Of a stretch of DNA of 64,000 nucleotides, positions 3,903 to 63,753 are shown piece after piece. The stretch is from the NCBI GenBank assembly GCA_963663965.2, contig CAXXFK010000018.1, forward strand, positions 1 to 64,000, given 5' to 3'. A model generated the notes under the pieces. That model was not told where the DNA came from. It saw nothing but the letters and a program-made list of their open reading frames with translations, and did not search any database. Within the stretch, counting starts at the first letter, position 1; every line of letters begins with the position of its first letter. The position numbers and the translations under genes are program-made. This stretch comes from Sedimentisphaerales bacterium (GTDB lineage Bacteria; Planctomycetota; Phycisphaerae; Sedimentisphaerales; SM23-30).

Positions 3903-5762
3903 ATGAAAAGGGTTCTGTTGCCCGCGTTTCTGCTGTTCGTTTTAGTGATGGGGGGACTGTCGTATTTATTGTTTCAGCAGTATATTATTGTGCAGGCGGA
4001 AAAAAGAGTCGAAAGCGTTCTCTATGAATCGGTCGCGTTACATCATTACGTCCAGAAATGCATGCATCCGGTCATGTACGAACTGAAAGAATCGGGTCGG
4101 CTTCCCAAAGAGTTTTACGCGCCGGAAATGTTATCTTCTTCTTATATCGCGCGCCATATGTTTCAATTATTCAATGAACAGCGTAAAATGGCAGGATTGC
4201 CCCCCGTAACCTATCGGATCGCCTCGGAAAATCCTCGAAATTCCGTCAATCAAGCCAGTGAGCGTGAAGCGGAATTGATCCGCATGTTTAATCAGGATCG
4301 CTCTAAAAAAAGTTTTCATCAAATAGTTCATGATAGCGGCAATCATTATCTGCTTTATGCCCAGCCTTTTCTTGAAGTCAAACCGGCCTGTTTAAAATGT
4401 CATGGCCGCCCGGAAGATACCCCCATTGAATTACGCCAGGCCTATAACTGGACCGGCGGATATGGCTTAAAAGTAGGTGATATCATCGCCGTTGAAACCA
4501 TTGAATCGCCTTTGGCCAGCGATTTAAAGGCTTCACAACTGTTTTTAATTGGTACCATTGGTGTCGTATTGACCCTGGGTGTTCTGGCCCTGCTCAATTT
4601 CAAATTAGCCTCATCAGTTCAGGATAAATCCCGGGAATTACTGGAGAGCCGTCATTCTCTGCTGGTCGCTCAAAACATTGCGCGCCTGGGAAATTGGCGT
4701 TATGATAAAACGCGTGATGAGTTCATGATTTCTGATATTTTTGCGGATATACTGGGGGATAAATCTCTTGGCAATCATGTCATTTCACTGGAGGATTTCA
4801 TTGACCATGTCCTCTGTGAGGATCAGCACCTGGTCCGGCAACATTTCAAAGACAGCCTTGATCAAGTTGCGGATGAATTGGAATTTCGGATTGTTAATCA
4901 AAAAAATTCGGAAATTCGAATTTTGCATTTAACCAGTCGGCTTCTTGACGATAATCAGAATGAACAGAGGTTAACCGGTGCCGTACAGGATATTACCGAA
5001 CGGGTCATGGCCGGTCAGGAACGGGAACGTTTGATTAGCGACCTGGAAGCTCGTAACCGGCAGCTGGAGCAGTATGCTTATTCCATTTCGCATGACTTGA
5101 AAACTCCTCTGGTTACCATTGAAGGATTTGTTGGATTCCTGGAAAAGAATCTGGCGGAAGGGGATCTGGAACAGGCTGCTGTCAGTATGGAGCATATCCG
5201 CCGGTCGTCTCATCAGATAAACGACCTGCTGCAGGATCTGTTGCATCTGACGGAAATCGGCCAGATGGAAATAACTTTCGAAAGGGTTAATCTGGAAAAA
5301 TTGATGCGTAATACGATTGACCGTTGTCATGCTCAAATCAACGCGCGGGGTATTCAATTGCTTGTCGATGACAATCTCCCGGTTATTCAGGGAAACGTCA
5401 GGGTATTGTCTCTTCTGTTCGACAATCTGATCGAAAATGCCATCAAATTTATGGGAGAACAGCAGAATCCAGCCATTCATATCGGATGCGAAATTCTGGA
5501 TGAACGCGTGCTGATTACAGTGGGTGATAATGGAATAGGCATTCCTGAGGTTTATCGGGAACGCATTTTCCGGTTGTTTGAAAAACTGGATGTCCGGTCG
5601 TTGGGGACCGGTATTGGCTTGACCATGGCGCGCCGCATTGTTGAACTGCATCATGGCCGTATCTGGGTGGAATCCAATAATCCCGGCAGCGTATTTTACA
5701 TCGAATTACCGCTATCGGCTCATGCTGGGGTTTATTCTGACACCCCGGTTGAAACGGCTTGA
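3903..5762 (+). CDS. Sensor histidine kinase with periplasmic c-type heme (DUF3365/Tll0287-like) domain, PAS, HisKA and HATPase
   Basis: TM, then ASENPRN and CLKCH (CxxCH), second TM, PAS-like region, H-box SHDLKTPL, N-box NLIENAIKF, G boxes DNGIGI and GTGIGL. The start could be as early as 3873/3879. Confidence 0.9.
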   Translation: MKRVLLPAFLLFVLVMGGLSYLLFQQYIIVQAEKRVESVLYESVALHHYVQKCMHPVMYELKESGRLPKEFYAPEMLSSSYIARHMFQLFNEQRKMAGLPPVTYRIASENPRNSVNQASEREAELIRMFNQDRSKKSFHQIVHDSGNHYLLYAQPFLEVKPACLKCHGRPEDTPIELRQAYNWTGGYGLKVGDIIAVETIESPLASDLKASQLFLIGTIGVVLTLGVLALLNFKLASSVQDKSRELLESRHSLLVAQNIARLGNWRYDKTRDEFMISDIFADILGDKSLGNHVISLEDFIDHVLCEDQHLVRQHFKDSLDQVADELEFRIVNQKNSEIRILHLTSRLLDDNQNEQRLTGAVQDITERVMAGQERERLISDLEARNRQLEQYAYSISHDLKTPLVTIEGFVGFLEKNLAEGDLEQAAVSMEHIRRSSHQINDLLQDLLHLTEIGQMEITFERVNLEKLMRNTIDRCHAQINARGIQLLVDDNLPVIQGNVRVLSLLFDNLIENAIKFMGEQQNPAIHIGCEILDERVLITVGDNGIGIPEVYRERIFRLFEKLDVRSLGTGIGLTMARRIVELHHGRIWVESNNPGSVFYIELPLSAHAGVYSDTPVETA

Positions 5763-14882: not shown

Positions 14883-16347
14883 GTAACAATTCACACTTTT
14901 TTTAAAAATAACAAGAAAAAAGATTGCGCCCTGCACAACCATCTGTTATACCAAAAGTTATGGATGACAAAGATATTGTTATAGCGCAGCTGCTCCAAGA
15001 GGTCGCTTCCTTACGCGAAGAAGTAAGGCAGCTCAAAGAAGAAATTGCTCGGCTCAAGAAAGATTCGAGCAATTCGTCCAAGCCGCCCTCAAGTGATATT
15101 GTCAAACCCAAGAGGCCTTCCGCTAAGGCTAGTCGCAAAAAACGCAACCGGGGTGGCCAGCATGGGCATAAAAAGTTTTCGCGTCAACCGTTTGAAGAAG
15201 TTGACCACACATTTGAATACGAGTTGGCAGACAAAGACGCCGTGGGCCTTAAGCCTCTGGATGCCTGGTTTGTCATTCAACAAATCGGATTGCCGGAGAA
15301 AATGTACCAGGTGATTGAGCATCGAGCCAGAAAGTACCGAAACCCTGTGACAGGAAAGGTCCAGATCACCCCCTTGCCGAACGAGATTCGTAAAGGGGGA
15401 TTGCTGGGTGCGGACCTGACGGCGTTGGTGTCCTATTTGAAAGGCGCCTGCCATATGTCGTATAGCACCATTCAGGGTTTTTTCCAGCAGGTGATGAAGC
15501 TGGAGGTTTCTCGCGGCATGCTTGGCAAGGCGGTTCAGAAGGGATCGAGCGCCTTGGGCCGATCGTATGATGAACTGGCCGACCGATTGCCGAACGAACC
15601 GCAGGTCAATATCGATGAGACAGGCCATCATGACAATGGCAAGCTGCATTGGACCTGGTGTTTTGATACCGGCGCCTACAGTTTGTTTAAGATTGATCCG
15701 TCGCGCGGCAGCGGCGTGCTGGAAACCATGCTTGGTAAAACCTTTGCCGGGATCATTGGGGCCGATTACTGGGGCGCCTATCGCAAGTATGCCCGGTTGT
15801 TTGGTGTTCGTGTTCAGTATTGCATGGCTCACTTGATTCGAGACGTTCGTTTTCTGGCCGAGCATAGCGTGCCCGCACTGTCTCGCTGGGGAACAAAATT
15901 GCTGGCATGGCTCAAAAAACTGTTTGACACCCTGCATCGGCGAGACGCCTTGACGCCACCGGGCTGGTTGCGTTCGATGGCGCGCCTCAAAACCGGCTTT
16001 TTGAAGCAAATGCGAAGGCCGCCGAATCACAAACTGGCCCAGAAACTGGCCAAACGATTTAAGGGCAATGCTGCAACCGATTACTTCCGATTTTTGACGG
16101 AGCCGGCTGTCGAACCCACCAATAATGGCACGGAGCGCCAAATTCGCACCGTGGTGATTGACCGACGGATCACGCAAGGAACGCGCGGCCAGGCAGGCAT
16201 GCGCTGGTGCGAACGCATCTGGACAACAATAGCAACCTGCAAAAAACAGCGTCAGAATGTCCTTGATTTTATCCATGAATCGATTATTGCTCATTGGAGC
16301 AACATAAAATATCCATCGTTAATCTGTCAGAATGTGTGAACGGTTAC
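14883..16347 (+). mobile_element. IS66-family insertion sequence (single-ORF, ISBst12-like)
   Basis: Terminal inverted repeats GTAACAATTCACAC / GTGTGAACGGTTAC and an 8-bp direct repeat TAATTTTT at 14875-14882 and 16348-16355. Confidence 0.93.
14960..16339 (+). CDS. IS66-family DDE transposase
   Basis: Coiled coil, SSNSSKPPSSD, GGQHGH, IDETG, QYCMAHLIRD and PTNNGTERQIR motifs. Confidence 0.95.
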   Translation: MDDKDIVIAQLLQEVASLREEVRQLKEEIARLKKDSSNSSKPPSSDIVKPKRPSAKASRKKRNRGGQHGHKKFSRQPFEEVDHTFEYELADKDAVGLKPLDAWFVIQQIGLPEKMYQVIEHRARKYRNPVTGKVQITPLPNEIRKGGLLGADLTALVSYLKGACHMSYSTIQGFFQQVMKLEVSRGMLGKAVQKGSSALGRSYDELADRLPNEPQVNIDETGHHDNGKLHWTWCFDTGAYSLFKIDPSRGSGVLETMLGKTFAGIIGADYWGAYRKYARLFGVRVQYCMAHLIRDVRFLAEHSVPALSRWGTKLLAWLKKLFDTLHRRDALTPPGWLRSMARLKTGFLKQMRRPPNHKLAQKLAKRFKGNAATDYFRFLTEPAVEPTNNGTERQIRTVVIDRRITQGTRGQAGMRWCERIWTTIATCKKQRQNVLDFIHESIIAHWSNIKYPSLICQNV

Positions 16348-20813: not shown

Positions 20814-20991
20814 AAGCCTCCAGAATAAGTAGCATGGGCATCCAGCCCATGAATAGAGTTTGGCGCATTGACGCATGGTATTATAACAAACAGTTAATAT
20901 TATTTTATTGACATCTCCCTAATATCAACATAAATCTGGGAAGATTAATTGCATTATCAATATAAATTTTGGACAGGAGTGAGGCTTTACC

Positions 20992-26028: not shown

Positions 26029-26961
26029 TTAGCCTCTAAAAGAAGCGGTCTTATTAGGCTGTATTACATAAGAAAAAACTACTTCATCAATCGGAGATCC
26101 ATGGGATCTGCATTTTAGTGTTTCTATTTTTGTTGCTGCATAGTAACCGGCACTATTTTGCCATACGACTATTTCCCCAAGTTGAGCGGTTCTCACTCTG
26201 GATGAGGTATCATACGTTGAAGCATCTTCAATTTCCTCTATCTTTTTAATATCTGTTATCAGGGCTATAGATCGTATACTCTTGGGGTCGTTATAAGCAT
26301 GTATAGATTTTTTATTTGCGCCTGTCCATGCCGTTTCAAACGCCATATCACCTGCACCTATTATATACCGACCGTTATTATTGGAATAATCGAAAGTTAC
26401 TATACCGGCCAACGTCGGCGAAATATATCGCTCTTTGCTGAAAGATAATTTTGGTTCGATATCTTTGGGGGTCACTTTAAACGGATTATAGCCGAGCGGT
26501 GGTCTCGGCTTAATCTTCTCTCCATGTATTTCGCGCACTAATTCTTCATATTTTTCTTCATACTTTTGATCATCCCTGAAATCAACATAGGCCTTTGAAG
26601 CCAGAAAGGTCGGGATTGGAACTTTATTATCATTATCGCGAATCACTGGAATAATACGATCACTTTGAATGTCTTGCATCAATTGACCAGTCAGAATCAT
26701 CTTTTCATAGCCAACTCCACCTGCCCCTCTGTTTGCTTTCTTTACATAATTATCTGTACATATTGCCAATACTCTTTTGGCTTCAGTAAGGCCGGATTCC
26801 ATGAATTGCGGCAAATCCCCTCCTAAGGTCAGATTCCATTGATCCAATATAACATCAACCCCGTTGTTAACTAATCTTGTAGCTAAGGTTAAAACCCAGT
26901 CTTTATGCTGATCACTATCATGTGAGTAAGAAATAAAAACTTTGGAAGCACCACTTGACAT
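26029..26961 (-). CDS. TIR/SEFIR-domain protein with an uncharacterised C-terminal domain
   Basis: KVFISYSHDS..HKDWVLTLATRL..GVDVILDQW..GGVGYE..IIPVIR. Visibly lower GC than flanking genes. Confidence 0.88.
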   Translation of the reverse strand: MSSGASKVFISYSHDSDQHKDWVLTLATRLVNNGVDVILDQWNLTLGGDLPQFMESGLTEAKRVLAICTDNYVKKANRGAGGVGYEKMILTGQLMQDIQSDRIIPVIRDNDNKVPIPTFLASKAYVDFRDDQKYEEKYEELVREIHGEKIKPRPPLGYNPFKVTPKDIEPKLSFSKERYISPTLAGIVTFDYSNNNGRYIIGAGDMAFETAWTGANKKSIHAYNDPKSIRSIALITDIKKIEEIEDASTYDTSSRVRTAQLGEIVVWQNSAGYYAATKIETLKCRSHGSPIDEVVFSYVIQPNKTASFRG

Positions 26962-27358
26962 ATTTATACTCCAGAGCTTTAATAGTTATTTTGCATCGTA
27001 CTTTCTTGTTTTTTTTGCACGCCCCAATTCCGATTGATACTTTATACGCGGTTTGATAATCCACGTTGATACTGCAAATCCTATTAAAATAAGTGTATTC
27101 TTAACTATGATCCGAAACTCCTTAAGTCAGAGTTTTGATTGCATGCACTATCCATTCCTTGTTGTACTCACTACCAACTATTGGTAACGACACACACGAA
27201 AGCCAATGTTGTGGTAGCGATAGCTTGGAGAACTCCAGTAGCGATGGGCAATGCGACAACCTTCGGCAGTACTGCTCCAACTGCCACCTCGATTCACTCG
27301 GTCACTACCATTATCTGGCCCAGTTGGATTATTGGATGGACTTGAAGAATCGTAACTA

Positions 27359-28577
27359 GTGCTCTGTAAAGATTAAATATTCGGATATAGTGATCTCAAT
27401 TTACACCTGGCATCTTCCACTTTAAATTGCCAGTTAACGCCTCGTTGCTTTTCGTTGGAGTGGGTGGCCCATGCTTTCGTCTCTTTTTTCAGCCTATCCA
27501 TGTCGGTCATTTTTCGATCCTTCAGACATTGCCGGGTCATCGCACTCAGTTCATTTTCGGCCACATTGAGCCAACTGCCATGCTTGGGCGTGTAATGAAA
27601 TTCAATTTTTTCCACATACCGGCGCGCCTGCTCCGGAGGAAAAACCTCGTAAAAAGCTCCCTTGGTATGAGTATTCAAATTGTCGCACACCAGAAGCACT
27701 CGTTTCGCTTGGGCATAGCGGCCCTCCAGCAACTCTGCCATTTCAACGGCCCAGTCAACCTTTTTCCGTTGTGGACGAACGCTCACCCCACGCCAGCCGG
27801 ATTTGGGTTCTGTGAACATGAATATGCTGGCGGTTCCGGCGCGCTCGTATTCATAGTCTACTCGACGAGGATGATGCAAGGTTGCTGCCATCGGAGGGCG
27901 AGTTTCCTTGAGCAATTGCACTGGCTGTTCATCCATGCATAGCGCCGGAAAATCCGGGTGATATGGCAGGGAATAGACATTCAGAACATCTTCCATGCAC
28001 GCGACAAATTCACTGTTTTGGTCCGGCGGTATCACCCAGTACTGTATCTTTCGGTTCGTCATTTCATTTTTTTAAGCGTCGTGGCAACGGTGGTGTGACT
28101 GATGGATTCTACGATTCCCAATTCCACCGCTTTGTCGGCTATCAAACGCAACGACCAGTTACTGTAACCTTCCGGCGGATCGCTTAGCCTCAGGGCAATG
28201 ATCTTTGCCTCCTGCTCGCCATCCAGCAGCTTGGCGCGAGGCGGCGTGTCACGCTGCTTACCGTTCAATGTGATGTCAAACCCTCTTTCTACCAGCGATT
28301 TACGAACTTTGGTTACGGTCCTGAGACGACACAAAAAAGCGTCGGCAATTTGATTGCAGGACCAGTTGGGACCGTCCGCATCCGCCTTAAGCAAGATTTG
28401 AGCCCGTTTGACTTTTTGCGAGGTGCCCTTGAGTTTTGTAACAACTTCAAGCAGCTCTTTCCGTTCTGCGTCAGTGAGACGAACGATGTACTTTTTCATA
28501 ACAAACTCCATAAATATTCGGTTTATGGAGTTATTATCGGACATGCTATATAAGAATATTTAGTTTTTACAGAGCAC
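27359..28577 (-). mobile_element. IS630-family insertion sequence
   Basis: TIRs GTGCTCTGTAAAGATTAAATATTC / GAATATTTAGTTTTTACAGAGCAC (22/24), TA duplication at 27357-58 and 28578-79 within a CTAG target. Confidence 0.95.
27373..28499 (-). CDS. IS630 transposase, two ORFs (28059-28499 HTH, 27373-28062 DDE) joined by a probable programmed -1 frameshift
   Basis: PPEGYSNWSLRL HTH part; MDEQP, DYEYERAG, DNLNTH and TPKHGSWLNVAE motifs. An A7 slippery run lies at the ORF overlap (about 28067-28073). Confidence 0.9.
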
Positions 28578-29745
28578 TAGGATTATACCAATCAGCACAC
28601 CATTCACGAACATTACCTGACATATCAAAAAGGCCGTAGCTATTAGCATTAAAACTACCCACTGGAGAAGTATATGGTTTGGTGCCGGTATTGTAGGTGG
28701 GATGATACCCACGAGTGAAACTGGTGTTGTAACTAGCAATGTAGTAACTATCAAAATTGGCATGGGAATGGGTGATAAACGTACCCCATGGAAAGCGCCA
28801 ACCAGAATGAGCACCACGGGCAGCATATTCCCACTGGGCTTCGGTGGGCAATTTATAGCCATAGAAATCGCAGAAGGCTTTGGCGCCGTACCAACTGACT
28901 CTAACTATTGGATGATTATCTTGGGGATTGCCATTGCGGCTTTTAACAGAATAACTTCCGTCGCTGGAATTTATCAGACTTTGTGAACTGAAAATTGAAG
29001 TGTCACACCAAAGCTGGCTGTTGGAACTGTCCGTACTAGCGTAAATTACACCGTTGACCTCCTTTAGCATGTTCTGCGCTTTGGCTTCGTTAAGGAACTG
29101 GGCATACTGGGCATTGGTGATCTCTTGTTTGCTCATCTGAAAGGAACTGAGTGTCACGGTATGAACAGGGAGTTCGTTGCCATAACCTTCATTAAAGTTA
29201 TCGCCCATTTGGAACGAACCAGCGGGTATGGTAACAAACTCGATATCTCTAGGATCAGTAATATAAATTCCATCTGTTGACCAGTTGGATGTCAGAATTG
29301 CCAATTTATCAGTGTTATAAATGTCCAGCCATTGGTCTGACATAAGTTTGAAATCATCTAGATCGATTCGACAATCACCATTTAAATCGCCTTGGGGACA
29401 TTGCGACCAGCCAGGGTAATATAATCCCAATATAGTAAGGACCATTACCAACAACCACTGTCGAGTAAACGGGCTTTTGTCCATCTTTTTCACCTTTCAC
29501 GAGCCATAGAGATATCCGGGTAATCTTATTATTAAAACTAACTATTCATTATCCATTATAAACTTTATGTAGATCTAATTCAATCGTGGTAAATACGGTT
29601 TTTATCCCATTTATGAAAAATCTGATATTAAAAGATAAAGTATGAATTATTTGGTTGATAGATTCCAAAAATCATATAAAGCATTATATTGTAAGCAATT
29701 AAAGCATAGACCCCATATATCTTATAAAGACAACATTGACATTAA

Positions 29746-29913
29746 TATGATTTATTAATAAAGAAGGGTTCGGCACATATTTCCGAAATCGAACAACTCT
29801 GCCCCGAGGTCACCCGGCGTACCTTGCAACGGGATATGAATGCTTTAATTGAACTCAACCTGGTTCGAGTTACCAGTTCAACCCGTCAGTCGAACTATGA
29901 ATTCATCAAATAG
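29746..29913 (+). pseudogene. Remnant winged-HTH (DeoR-like, resembling the C-terminus of Fic-family proteins)
   Basis: Start-less frame LLIKKGSAHISEIEQLCPEVTRRTLQRDMNALIELNLVRVTSSTRQSNYEFIK*. Not in the ORF track. Confidence 0.55.
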
Positions 29914-29947: not shown

Positions 29948-30260
29948 ACTATTGGTCATTATAAACAATATATGTAAATTGGTTGATGCCAACGATCAGA
30001 GGTGCATAACTATTTATTATATAATTCATTAACGCTGAATCGGTCAAATTTTTCATCTGAAACAAATCAATCATCTGGCATAAATTAATCAATATTATGT
30101 TAAATAAAATAAAAACATAAAATTTAATTTGCCTTTAAATATGACTCGGTCTATAATACCAAAGTCGACCCAATAGCCCTCAAACCACCCGACTGAATCA
30201 GCGTACTCCGCCCCAACCGGCCACGCCCGCAGAGCCCCTCTGCGCATGAACCGTGGTGCT

Positions 30261-31371
30261 TTCAAGCGTAGCAAAGCGCAGCTTGTGGGTGTATTCATCG
30301 TCTTGTGTAAGATGGTGTGAACTGGGAATTAACCGGCCAATTTGCTTTGGCTGCTATAACAATACGAAAGAAATGGGATTCGCAAAAATGGAACAACCGG
30401 ATAACGAAGACGCAAAAGGCTCGAAGGTCGCAGATCCGCCTCAGAAGGAACCGACCGTTCCTGGCCGGGGTTCGTAAGGCCCCGGTCAGCGATGGTAATT
30501 GTAATGTTTTTCAACCCTCGCCTCCCCGAGGCGAAAGATAACGTAGGATGGGCAACCCCCGGTTGCCCATGCTGGTCTAATTAACATGAGCGCAGCGAAT
30601 ACCAACATAAAACGAAACAAAGCCAATGATGAAAATAATGGTCCTAACCCCAACAACGAAACGAGCTTAACGAAAAATAAAAAAATCATCCGCCGAATGC
30701 CGCAGGTCCGCCTCAGGAGGACGGATACCCAAAGCGGCCCAACGGGCCGGCATAAAATAGCCCAGGCAGAGCGAATCCCGTAAAACGGGATGAGCGCCAC
30801 CCTGGGTAACAAACATGATTTTAAAATTTTAACCCACGCCTCGCAGAGGCGTACCGCCAGGATATCTCGCAAAAGAGATAGATAAAACCAACATGAGCGC
30901 AGCGAAAACCAACATAAAACGAAACAAAGCCAACGATAAAAAATATCACCCTAACCTTTACAATAACAGGAGGATAACGAAATTTTATTCATACCCTGGA
31001 TGCCATCTTCAAGCGCAGCTTGTGGGTGGATTGGTCGCCTTGTGAACTCCAATTTGAATTGAGCTTAACGAAAAATATAAAACCATCCGCCTCAAGGCGG
31101 ATACAAATAATATCTCGGAGAGATCAAAAGCGCATAGCCCGCCAATTCATTGGCGGGAATACCCGAACCAGCGTAGAAAATTTTTAAACCCACGCCTCGC
31201 AGAGGCGTACCTGCAGGATATCTCGCAAAAGAGATAGATAAAACTAACCATGAGCGCAGCGAATACCAACAGAAAACGAAACAAAGCCAATGGGTTAAAA
31301 TATTGCCATAACCCTAACAATATATCGAGCTTAACGAAAAATAAAAAAACCATCCGCCTCTTGGCGGATAC
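30261..31371 (+). repeat. Non-coding modular repeat array (three clear units plus one degenerate unit, ~290-360 bp period)
   Basis: ATGAGCGCAGCGAAWACCAACAKAAAACGAAACAAAGCCAA ending at 30626, 30933 and 31290, each followed by 36 variable nt and GAG(C/G)(T/A)TAACGAAA. A ~110-bp near-identical block occurs at 30823-30933 and 31177-31290. Interspersed hairpins throughout. Confidence 0.88.
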
Positions 31372-31426
31372 CACAATTTTGCATTTTAAATTCTAAATTT
31401 TAAATTTCTAAACAGGAGGTACTACC

Positions 31427-32266
31427 ATGTCATCTTCACTCAGAAGACTACGCGCCAACCGTCGTAACGCCCAGAAATCCACCGGCCCCAAAACCCCCGA
31501 GGGCAAGGCCATCTCATCCAGAAATGCCATCAAGCACGGCCTCAGCGGCCAGGACCCCGCCCACCTCATTGTCCCCGGCGAATCCGAACTCACCTACCTC
31601 GAATTCCGCGCAGCGTTGCTGCAAGACCTCAAACCCACCACCTATCTCCAGCGCCACATCGCCGACCAGATCGTCTCGGCCGCCTGGCGACTGGAACGCC
31701 TCGGCCGCATCGAAGCCGAAATGATCGACGCCCGCGTCTATAAACTCCGCCTCACCAACGAAGAAATTCGCAAAGACACCGTCATCGACCAGCCCTTCGC
31801 CCACTCCAGCATCTACTTACCACGTCACAACGAAGTCGGCACCGCCTTCACCCTCGAAACCCCCGCCTTCAACTGCCTGGCCCGCTACGAAGCCCACCTC
31901 AACCGAACCTTCCAGGCCAATCTTAAGCTCCTGCAACAGTTGCAATTACAACAAAAACCAAACGAACCCAATGCCTACCCCACGGAGTACCCATTTCCCG
32001 ATTTACCCCGCGTCCACATCCCCGACCCACCCAGAATCCCCACACACCCCAGCGAAGCCAAATTGGCCCCCGAATACATCAAAGACCGCCTGCCTGAGTT
32101 GATGAAAGACCACAGCGTAACTGACGACCAGGTCTTCAGTTACGCCTGCAACCGCTACGAAGCCCTCAACACCTTCTCCCAGCAGAACGGCGAAGAAGCC
32201 CTCCACGCCCTCGGTATCCCCACCAAACCCCCGGCCGATATCCCCATCCAGGAGGAAAAGAAATAA
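31427..32266 (+). CDS. Uncharacterised protein of the 'ANRRNAQKSTGPKTPEGK..NAIKHGL' family (HGGxSTG-related motif)
   Basis: Strong RBS AGGAGG, the family N-terminal motif, 'IVSAAWRLERLGRIE' and 'LARYEAHLNR' segments, strongly C-biased codons. Confidence 0.8.
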   Translation: MSSSLRRLRANRRNAQKSTGPKTPEGKAISSRNAIKHGLSGQDPAHLIVPGESELTYLEFRAALLQDLKPTTYLQRHIADQIVSAAWRLERLGRIEAEMIDARVYKLRLTNEEIRKDTVIDQPFAHSSIYLPRHNEVGTAFTLETPAFNCLARYEAHLNRTFQANLKLLQQLQLQQKPNEPNAYPTEYPFPDLPRVHIPDPPRIPTHPSEAKLAPEYIKDRLPELMKDHSVTDDQVFSYACNRYEALNTFSQQNGEEALHALGIPTKPPADIPIQEEKK

Positions 32267-32570
32267 GATAAACTCAACGACTACAACCAGAGCATAACAC
32301 TCATGGATTGAACAGAAAATTCAATCCACCCGGACCCGCTGCGCACCTTGGTTACCAAATATATAGCAGTGAAACTGTTCTTTTATCGTTTGAAAAAAAC
32401 GATCCGATTGGAACAGTTTCATGAATGAAACGAACGGATAACGCATTAATATTATCATCCCTGGCCCCGATGGCCGGCGAAAGCTCCATCAGCGCCTCCG
32501 GGTGAAAAGTTTAAAGGGGTGAAGAAAACGACGTGGGCGATGCCCATCCTGTGACTGATCAACGGGTCGG

Positions 32571-63339: not shown

Positions 63340-63753
63340 GCATGATAAAATGGGGAGCTTGAAATACCGGCTTCAAGATCCCCTGCCTTTCCGGAAATAC
63401 AATCCTTTTGGGCAGCCCATCAAGCACGCTACAATAGACGTACTGCGATTTTAGATGCGAAACGAACCCAATTATTAATCCCAACTGCTTATTCGATCAT
63501 TTCTTTTCACCTTCGGGGATTATAATCATTGATCTAACTAATTCATCTCATATGAGTTATATTCCTTTGATATTTCCATTGGTATTAAGCCGACAACAAA
63601 TAAAATCACCTTGGTTATTAAAGCCCGCCTTGATTCATTGATTTACCCTGATTTATCCGATCTGTATAATTGATCGACGCACGAAGTATCATTGTGCGTC
63701 AAGCAATGTCTATATAACCCTATGACCAACCTGGCAATTAAGCTAACGCAAAA

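Follow-up and report, generated by a model that had tools for sequence, protein, structure and literature searches.

What does a series of phased, near-identical DNA sites do directly ahead of a gene that carries no family name? The question is raised by one locus in a 64,000-nucleotide stretch of a Sedimentisphaerales genome (the window and G000, hereafter), for which a sequence-only reading had reported three repeat units with 36-nt cores and an in-register TAA-N19-(T/A)TA, followed by a gene with a strong ribosome-binding site (RBS). These observations were confirmed. The block AAACGAAACAAAGCCAA occurs exactly three times in the window, ending at 30626, 30933 and 31290, and is each time followed by 36 nt and then by GAG(C/G)(T/A)TAACGAAA; all three units fit the pattern node-N18-TAA-N19-(T/A)TA (30615-30669, 30922-30976 and 31279-31333). 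The degenerate fourth unit (30336-30381), the in-gene variant (31960-31971) and the lone far site (63460-63471) also lie where they had been placed, and the gene behind the array, here gene A, is an ORF at 31427-32266 with AGGAGG at 31414. The interpretation that accompanied these observations was partly supported: a mobile-type system of gene and sites and the terminase lead held up. It had overlooked the 5' end and the promoter, the 3' hairpin, how many copies there are, and the association with a large terminase (TerL) that lacks capsid genes. The parts of the locus are listed below, read from the sequence unless a comparison of copies, homology or a model is named.

29954-30031, + strand: 5' end module of the element, here a degenerate copy; homology among copies begins here
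30007-30031, + strand: TAA-N19-TTA box inside the 5' end module
30129-30157, + strand: predicted sigma-70-type promoter consensus, TTGCCT-N17-TATAAT; the -10 anchor recurs before most copies
30158-30246, + strand: conserved leader with a hairpin, TGCGCA at its end (comparison of copies)
30336-30381, + strand: degenerate site-plus-box unit
30543-30572, + strand: GTAG-tagged module, presumably a REP-like hairpin (also module comparison)
30585-30669, + strand: array unit 1, with conserved block, site (30615-30626), N18 and TAA-N19-TTA box
30670-30891, + strand: hairpin modules in the interval between units 1 and 2, common to copies and reshuffled (copy comparison)
30892-30976, + strand: array unit 2
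30977-31248, + strand: hairpin modules in the interval between units 2 and 3 (copy comparison)
31249-31333, + strand: array unit 3
31414, + strand: RBS of gene A, AGGAGG
31427-32266, + strand: gene A, 279 aa, all-helical model, small-terminase (TerS)-like N-terminus at residues 2-48 (homology, model)
Gene A residues 73-118 and 147-176: long helical hairpin (predicted model)
31960-31971, + strand: in-gene site directly behind the conserved core, reading KPNEPN; other frames and strands in relatives
32267-32345, + strand: 3' tail of fixed length, TGCGCA at its end (copy comparison)
32305-32327, + strand: tail hairpin, kept despite sequence change (copy comparison)
63460-63471, + strand: lone site without a gene, its box degenerate

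Phased sites and the gene behind them

The element at this locus holds a single ORF. REP, GTAG, ISL3, IS66, IS630 and GTA serve here as working labels. With regard to a possible assembly artefact, both junctions are reproduced without a difference in the public contigs of run X1, none of which spans the array; run X1 is possibly the source sample, so the order of the array modules in the window copy lacks independent support. Upstream of the element lies an AT-rich island (26029-29910). It holds a TIR/SEFIR gene, an FGE-sulfatase ORF ending at profile position 194 of 255 with a DDE insertion sequence of two ORFs immediately after it, and, at 29740-29910, a broken remnant that bears an HTH. Elsewhere in the window, the ORF at 14924-16339 belongs to a transposase-like family of eight copies.

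Across the 7.24-Mb genome, the site AAAC(A/G)AA(C/G)CCAA occurs 258 times, against ~7 expected under an order-4 Markov model, which rules out a chance motif. TAA stands exactly 18 nt behind the site in 142 of these 258 cases and the full N18-TAA-N19-TTA in 117. Many site clusters have no gene, in keeping with the earlier proposal of a multi-copy, mobile-type system that includes gene-less copies. The proposed co-occurrence of site and gene likewise held among relatives, with a site 450-1100 nt behind the gene start in 69/89 related loci and in 15/338 control windows. Phycisphaerae relatives carry site-box units of ~90 nt behind the gene, and in many relatives there are no more than one or two sites, which can be on either strand. 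The in-gene site falls in differing frames and on either strand among relatives and is therefore a DNA signal.

The fixed-length cores invite comparison with guides. If the protein used the array as a source of guide RNAs or spacers, as in TIGR or CRISPR systems, one would expect a promoter ahead of the array, as predicted here, and cores that vary more than their surroundings, and core divergence is indeed 34% at a fixed 36 nt, versus 5.5% in the conserved block. However, the 56 units hold only 38 distinct cores, which recur between loci; a search of the cell's own genome placed only 2/531 core matches away from a site, leaving no unique spacers with outside matches there; and the many relatives with one or two sites on either strand do not resemble such an array. 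No Rfam family matched at gathering score, which lends no support to a guide system or to a known ncRNA. We thus regard a guide array as very improbable, and the cores, from their sequence, are diverged fixed-length spacing between site and box and not acquired spacers. The array modules contain no frame-keeping ORF; the ATG-to-site offset is 29 in 48 of the 56 units.

Copies of the element and their boundaries

Gene A is present in G000 as 26 full-length, stop-free, scattered copies plus one 3' remnant, and each copy has its own array, which disposes of a one-off tandem duplication. None of the copies are identical (DNA 89-96% alike, proteins 92-99% alike). With a pN/pS of 0.11 overall and of 0.03-0.04 across the first 140 codons, they are by this measure under purifying selection. 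The ~2.4-kb element retains the same anatomy in most copies, in the order AT-rich 5' module, sigma-70-type promoter (predicted), leader ending in TGCGCA, mosaic array, RBS, gene and a tail of ~80 nt with its 3' hairpin, which is kept although sequence identity falls to 33-57%. By the motif set of this analysis, 25 distinct module orders were found among the 26 arrays. Within the gene, 4,793 of 8,646 biallelic site pairs were incompatible in a four-gamete test, at every distance, a figure that assembly chimerism could raise. Under the explanation that we favor below, the arrays would be mosaics produced by recombination between copies at shared modules.

Several other arrangements were observed in the same genome. 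One gene-A element is interrupted by an insertion sequence of 14-15 copies (C28:397379-400755), and elements are nested one inside another at C25:248212-250217. The 5' module occurs without gene A at 52 places, for example at window position 20880, and several times lies ahead of members of a multi-copy ORF family starting MSCRLRFK, one of which overlaps a Y1_Tnp match.

The features of known mobilizing enzymes were largely absent from these copies. We found no Pfam or NCBIfam transposase match at the element, and inspection of the 26 copies revealed neither the terminal inverted repeats (TIRs) nor the consistent target-site duplication (TSD) usual for a DDE insertion sequence; none of the 16 tyrosine-recombinase matches in G000 lies in a gene-A element; and the gene A protein, with no Y1_Tnp match and an all-helical model, lacks an HUH and catalytic Tyr domain. 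Two HUH-type traits are present, namely the subterminal 3' hairpin and, in G000, a strand bias, with the site strand C-rich upstream in 78/97 site clusters. A Y1 or RAYT enzyme encoded elsewhere could move these hairpin-bounded units in the manner of REP/BIME or IS200/IS605 elements, with the TerS-like gene as cargo. The lack of TIRs and target duplication fits this scenario, as do the REP-like modules in and around copies, the 11 Y1_Tnp matches in G000, and a 3' hairpin whose structure is conserved (z below -1.5 in 13/26 copies, versus 3/26 flanks); the C-rich upstream strand is comparable with lagging-strand-targeting elements (PMC6006769). We nonetheless give it a slim chance, since it leaves unexplained the tight link to a split TerL and the fact that a second TerS-like gene has been amplified along with these sites (both described below), as well as a site and phased box conserved across phyla and the raggedness of 3' ends elsewhere. 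The idea that the 3' hairpin is a free target repeat was rejected, one copy of it lying away from gene A.

GC skew is strong (10-35%) with frequent sign changes in G000 and at window positions 20000-44000. At the site clusters of G000 it is stronger upstream than downstream in 67/97 (p 7e-7), and the regression difference is 0.075, versus 0.005 +/- 0.014 in 100 shuffles. Strand bias and skew at the sites were not seen in 40 Acidobacteria loci, for which reason a replication-origin reading was dropped; moreover, a relative without the gene has an equally strong, roughly two-arm skew (20 samples). Two further candidates were rejected, a hijack of Xer/dif, as dif-like matches to a presumed consensus were at chance level only, and an SOS box in the 5' module, as the module was not seen by eye before recA-like and lexA-like ORFs.

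The element is not confined to this genome. The family of gene A comprises 22,351 representative relatives (clusters at 50% identity); it is present in 43/301 class genomes and 41/61 Acidobacteria-side genomes, with 20-112 matches per acidobacterial genome and 89, 112, 20, 7 and 49 matches in five genomes reached via the best loci. In three genomes, G041, G042 and G045, homology among copies has a sharp start, a GT(C/G/T)AC-type motif that precedes the gene by 110-175 nt, with half of a box at phased distance behind the motif, and ends raggedly near the stop codon. G041 and G055, which are ~87% alike, have six loci in common. All six retain the downstream flank, whereas 5/6 have different DNA immediately at the 5' boundary. 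On this comparison, the 5' end of the element is an exchange hotspot. The orthologous copies stay intact, and the element is therefore long-lived and not a fast jumper. Empty-site alleles, which the earlier reading had proposed to look for in close relatives, were not found in the six of 12 G041 loci queried singly against G055.

Such persistence also bears on a role in defense, in which solo TerS-like proteins and pac-like sites would act as decoys that jam phage packaging, benefit the host and spread by other means. Copies that stay put between ~87% alike genomes, the intactness of 26/26 copies in G000 with strong constraint over the first 140 codons, and a window copy bordering the TIR/SEFIR gene island are all compatible with this role. 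Conversely, the proteins are too alike to have diversified against many phages, tens to a hundred sharp-ended dispersed copies and multi-copy terS-terL operons look selfish, and the route to new loci is left unexplained, so that we judge a decoy distinctly improbable.

Terminase genes associated with the element

Searches of Pfam, NCBIfam, PHROG and PDB sequences with the window's protein returned no family name, neither Foldseek (pdb, viral) nor VIA-align pointed to a family or fold, and Atlas returned unnamed clusters only. The protein is modeled as all-helical and is well predicted over residues 1-175. The structure search proposed for its fold (Foldseek pdb, viral) yielded only a generic helical hairpin for helices 73-118 and 147-176, with no match above background, and the homodimer prediction scored 0.02. 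We found no gene A match in GenBank phages and one in plasmids, and no fused catalytic domain in 7 inspected of 34 longer relatives. A HEPN reading of the RNAIKH motif was rejected, its Arg being present in just 25% of relatives.

The earlier remark that a motif of the protein resembles those of terminase small subunits proved the key lead. On IMG/VR contigs, phage proteins with the gene A N-terminal motif directly precede large-terminase ORFs. Among 37 viral loci, most N-terminus-only matches have a long ORF directly behind them; 3/9 of these long ORFs that were scanned match PHROG large terminase, and 3/5 small viral ORFs match PHROG small terminase families. Profile alignment of phage TerS proteins with the gene A family covers 43-45 N-terminal columns (98.3% and 99.1%), and 3/120 family members match PHROG TerS families (E 0.002-0.006). 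These comparisons establish, at the level of sequence, that the N-terminal ~45 residues of gene A are homologous to phage terminase small subunits, and the protein is likely a putative TerS.

A search for large terminases in 15 genomes uncovered a split TerL, in which an ATPase gene and a separate nuclease gene (Terminase_6N plus a weak Terminase_6C) occur together in several copies per acidobacterial genome. A gene A relative lies within about 1.5 kb in 6/11 split-TerL loci of the first set and, in an independent pull by ATPase alignment, directly upstream in 21/29 genome loci (9 on the same strand, 12 divergent). In metagenomes, the gene is directly upstream in 21 of the 36 split-TerL loci whose upstream DNA reaches 1.2 kb or more, and in 32 of all 80. 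Wider cuts around 19 loci, 8 of which overlap the ATPase-alignment set, place the gene directly upstream on the same strand in 11, divergent in 4 and absent in 4; most hold both terL halves, with several loci per genome. In one genome (G371), three copies with ATPases 93-95% alike begin with a 5' motif of one type and are cut short at differing positions on the 3' side. All 18 genomes with a split TerL have gene A, versus 23/43 of those lacking it, a count that includes non-independent kin. One GT(C/G/T)AC-type 5' motif also stands at the start of both solo TerL and solo gene-A copies. Taken together, a partnership of gene A with terminase is likely, and we hold it with good confidence.

No split-TerL match was obtained at 1e-40 in the high-copy genomes G400, G372 and G397 (17-21 scored matches), nor at two TerL loci examined in G042. 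Four portal, capsid and scaffold queries found no match in 110 split-TerL loci (flanks of 1.5-4 kb). G041, G042, G043 and G045 each carry a similar cluster of TerL, portal, scaffold and major capsid genes (L268, L272, L273 and L278), the labels having been checked for G042 (L273) only; such clusters are possibly GTA-like and candidate helpers. At one further locus (L262, about 4600-5100), a CRISPR-like repeat array starts ~250 nt behind the terminase nuclease gene.

In G000 itself, a single TerL (C30:123675-122206) sits behind the same 5' module, promoter and sites as the gene A elements, with a frameshift near its C-terminus that is possibly an assembly error. Its orthologues occur in 183/301 class genomes and are single-copy in 43/43 order genomes. 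Their neighborhoods vary (C30:122200-130700; L216-L244), with no virion genes in 1.5-kb flanks, and the gene sometimes lies behind ParB-like, GNAT/ABC-like or TerS-like genes, the last in 7/29 Phycisphaerae loci. We read it as a domesticated terminase. The TerS slot in G000 is occupied by gene B. This gene, too, has been amplified, and its roughly 14 loci carry the 5' module or promoter, and the sites, that are found with gene A; hence, two TerS-like genes have been amplified with one site set in one genome. With a native-TerS profile, 13 gene B copies rank directly after two integrase-linked TerS-like ORFs (E 6e-4 to 3.5), and hhalign of gene B against TerS is weak (7.5%). No gene A relative lies beside TerL in 29 Phycisphaerae loci, nor does the window copy adjoin one; by hand counts that include G336, 7/43 class genomes with gene A lack the Phycisphaerae TerL (1e-20) and no association of the two exists inside family f14. 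The two integrase-linked TerS-like ORFs adjoin tyrosine integrases in satellite-like small islands at C22:90757 and C24:4048, one of which also has a primase/helicase-like ORF.

How the terminase would act is a separate matter. A TerS-aimed RNase H-type TerL nuclease might break DNA within the cell, with repair by gene conversion, or by one-ended recombination at common modules, copying the gene to other loci and no capsid involved. No portal, scaffold or capsid relatives were found in G000, and none near split-TerL loci; the nuclease is a separate gene; and the incompatible site pairs at all distances and the reshuffled arrays are what such copying might leave behind. Against this stand the Walker A/B and coupling motifs of the ATPase motor, kept in 10 aligned copies and more easily explained by translocation into a procapsid, the TerL-portal-capsid-like clusters of the four genomes above, which could be hijacked, and the failure to find Ku in G000. 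We consider this course of events unlikely.

Proposed mechanism and relation to known systems

Any explanation has to cover the observed copy number, purifying selection, site-gene linkage, TerS-type N-terminus, split-TerL neighborhood, and sharp 5' and ragged 3' ends. The best one, to which we tentatively give a little less than an even chance, is that the TerS-like protein and a large terminase acting in trans cut at a fixed 5' end and drive spread by way of helper procapsids. The gene A protein would bind the repeated site-plus-box sequences, which, as suggested by phage biology, may work like pac or cos signals, and would recruit a large terminase supplied in trans, whose cut would define the fixed 5' end. 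The cut DNA would be packaged from this end through the gene into procapsids of a helper (phage or GTA-like) and delivered. Homologous recombination, either on the downstream arm or at repeat modules in common, would then fix it, and the cut end would be joined through microhomology or through recombination with a second copy. The non-autonomous majority would consist of solo genes such as the window copy. Similarly, the TerS of SaPIs redirects a helper's terminase to their own pac sites and to chromosomal pseudo-pac sites, and packaging runs one way from pac (PMC6687093).

Several findings weigh against this best explanation. The TerS homology is limited to the N-terminal ~45 residues, high-copy genomes exist without a split TerL, G000 is without capsid genes, its 3' tail has a fixed length and a hairpin that headful packaging would not predict, and orthologous copies persist between ~87% alike genomes with no sign of rapid hopping. 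The same holds for the Phycisphaerae TerL loci without an adjoining gene A, the class genomes and family f14 that show no association of the two, the frameshift in the G000 TerL, the weak TerS link of gene B and the failure to find an empty site. Mobility of the element driven by terminase in some form is somewhat probable. We lean slightly towards a widespread class of selfish DNA made of terminase genes and recognition sites only, for which a packaging motor would cut, move and reshuffle chromosomes, and it seems marginally favored that this class would combine full terS-terL units with swarms of solo terS, with no transposase, integrase or reverse transcriptase.

The element is real, large and undescribed. 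It is likely a member of a class of mobile DNA, itself without a description, that would spread by terminase cutting and not by a transposase. No description was found in open-licence PMC and bioRxiv text, supplements being outside that scope. In a review of mobilisable elements, the presence of terminase genes or of pac/cos sites is taken to indicate mobilisation by phages, and the three passages found in it name no such terminase-only element (PMC11389934). These results offer a testable function for a very large unannotated family and for DNA motifs that fill intergenic space in Planctomycetes and Acidobacteria. If terminase drives movement, abundant uncultured bacteria would have a novel way of transposing DNA or of transferring it laterally across the whole chromosome, and also a compact system for site-specific cutting. 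If another mechanism does, it still has to be explained how a family reaches IS-like numbers, 20-100 intact copies, when no enzyme is known that would mobilize it.

Among known systems, SaPIs and other PICIs share an element-encoded small terminase, which in SaPIs redirects the large terminase as above (PMC6687093). Unlike them, the gene A element has no integrase, replication module, repressor gene or att-bounded 14-16 kb unit; it measures ~1-2.4 kb, is dispersed in tens to a hundred copies, and has its own cognate split TerL in Acidobacteria. The terS-terL modules of phages, including those engaged in lateral transduction, resemble it in the N-terminal motif, the terS-terL order, one sharp and one open end, and a site within or just ahead of terS, but no portal, capsid or tail genes were found near the element, its TerL is split in two genes, and it is chromosomal, at IS-like copy numbers. 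Gene transfer agents offer the parallel of a domesticated chromosomal terminase, as in the single-copy Phycisphaerae TerL; here, in contrast, no virion genes were found in G000, and a small subunit and its specific sites are amplified instead of a random packager. Mosaic hairpin arrays, the lack of TIR and TSD, and strand bias resemble REP/BIME with RAYT, IS200/IS605 and neisserial NIMEs, whereas the gene A protein has no HUH or IS110 domain, is multi-copy and is tied to terminase. Integrons differ in that neither an integrase nor ORF-bearing attC-type cassettes occur at the elements. Set apart by these traits from PICI, DDE, HUH, integron and CRISPR systems, the element works most like a stripped-down phage satellite.
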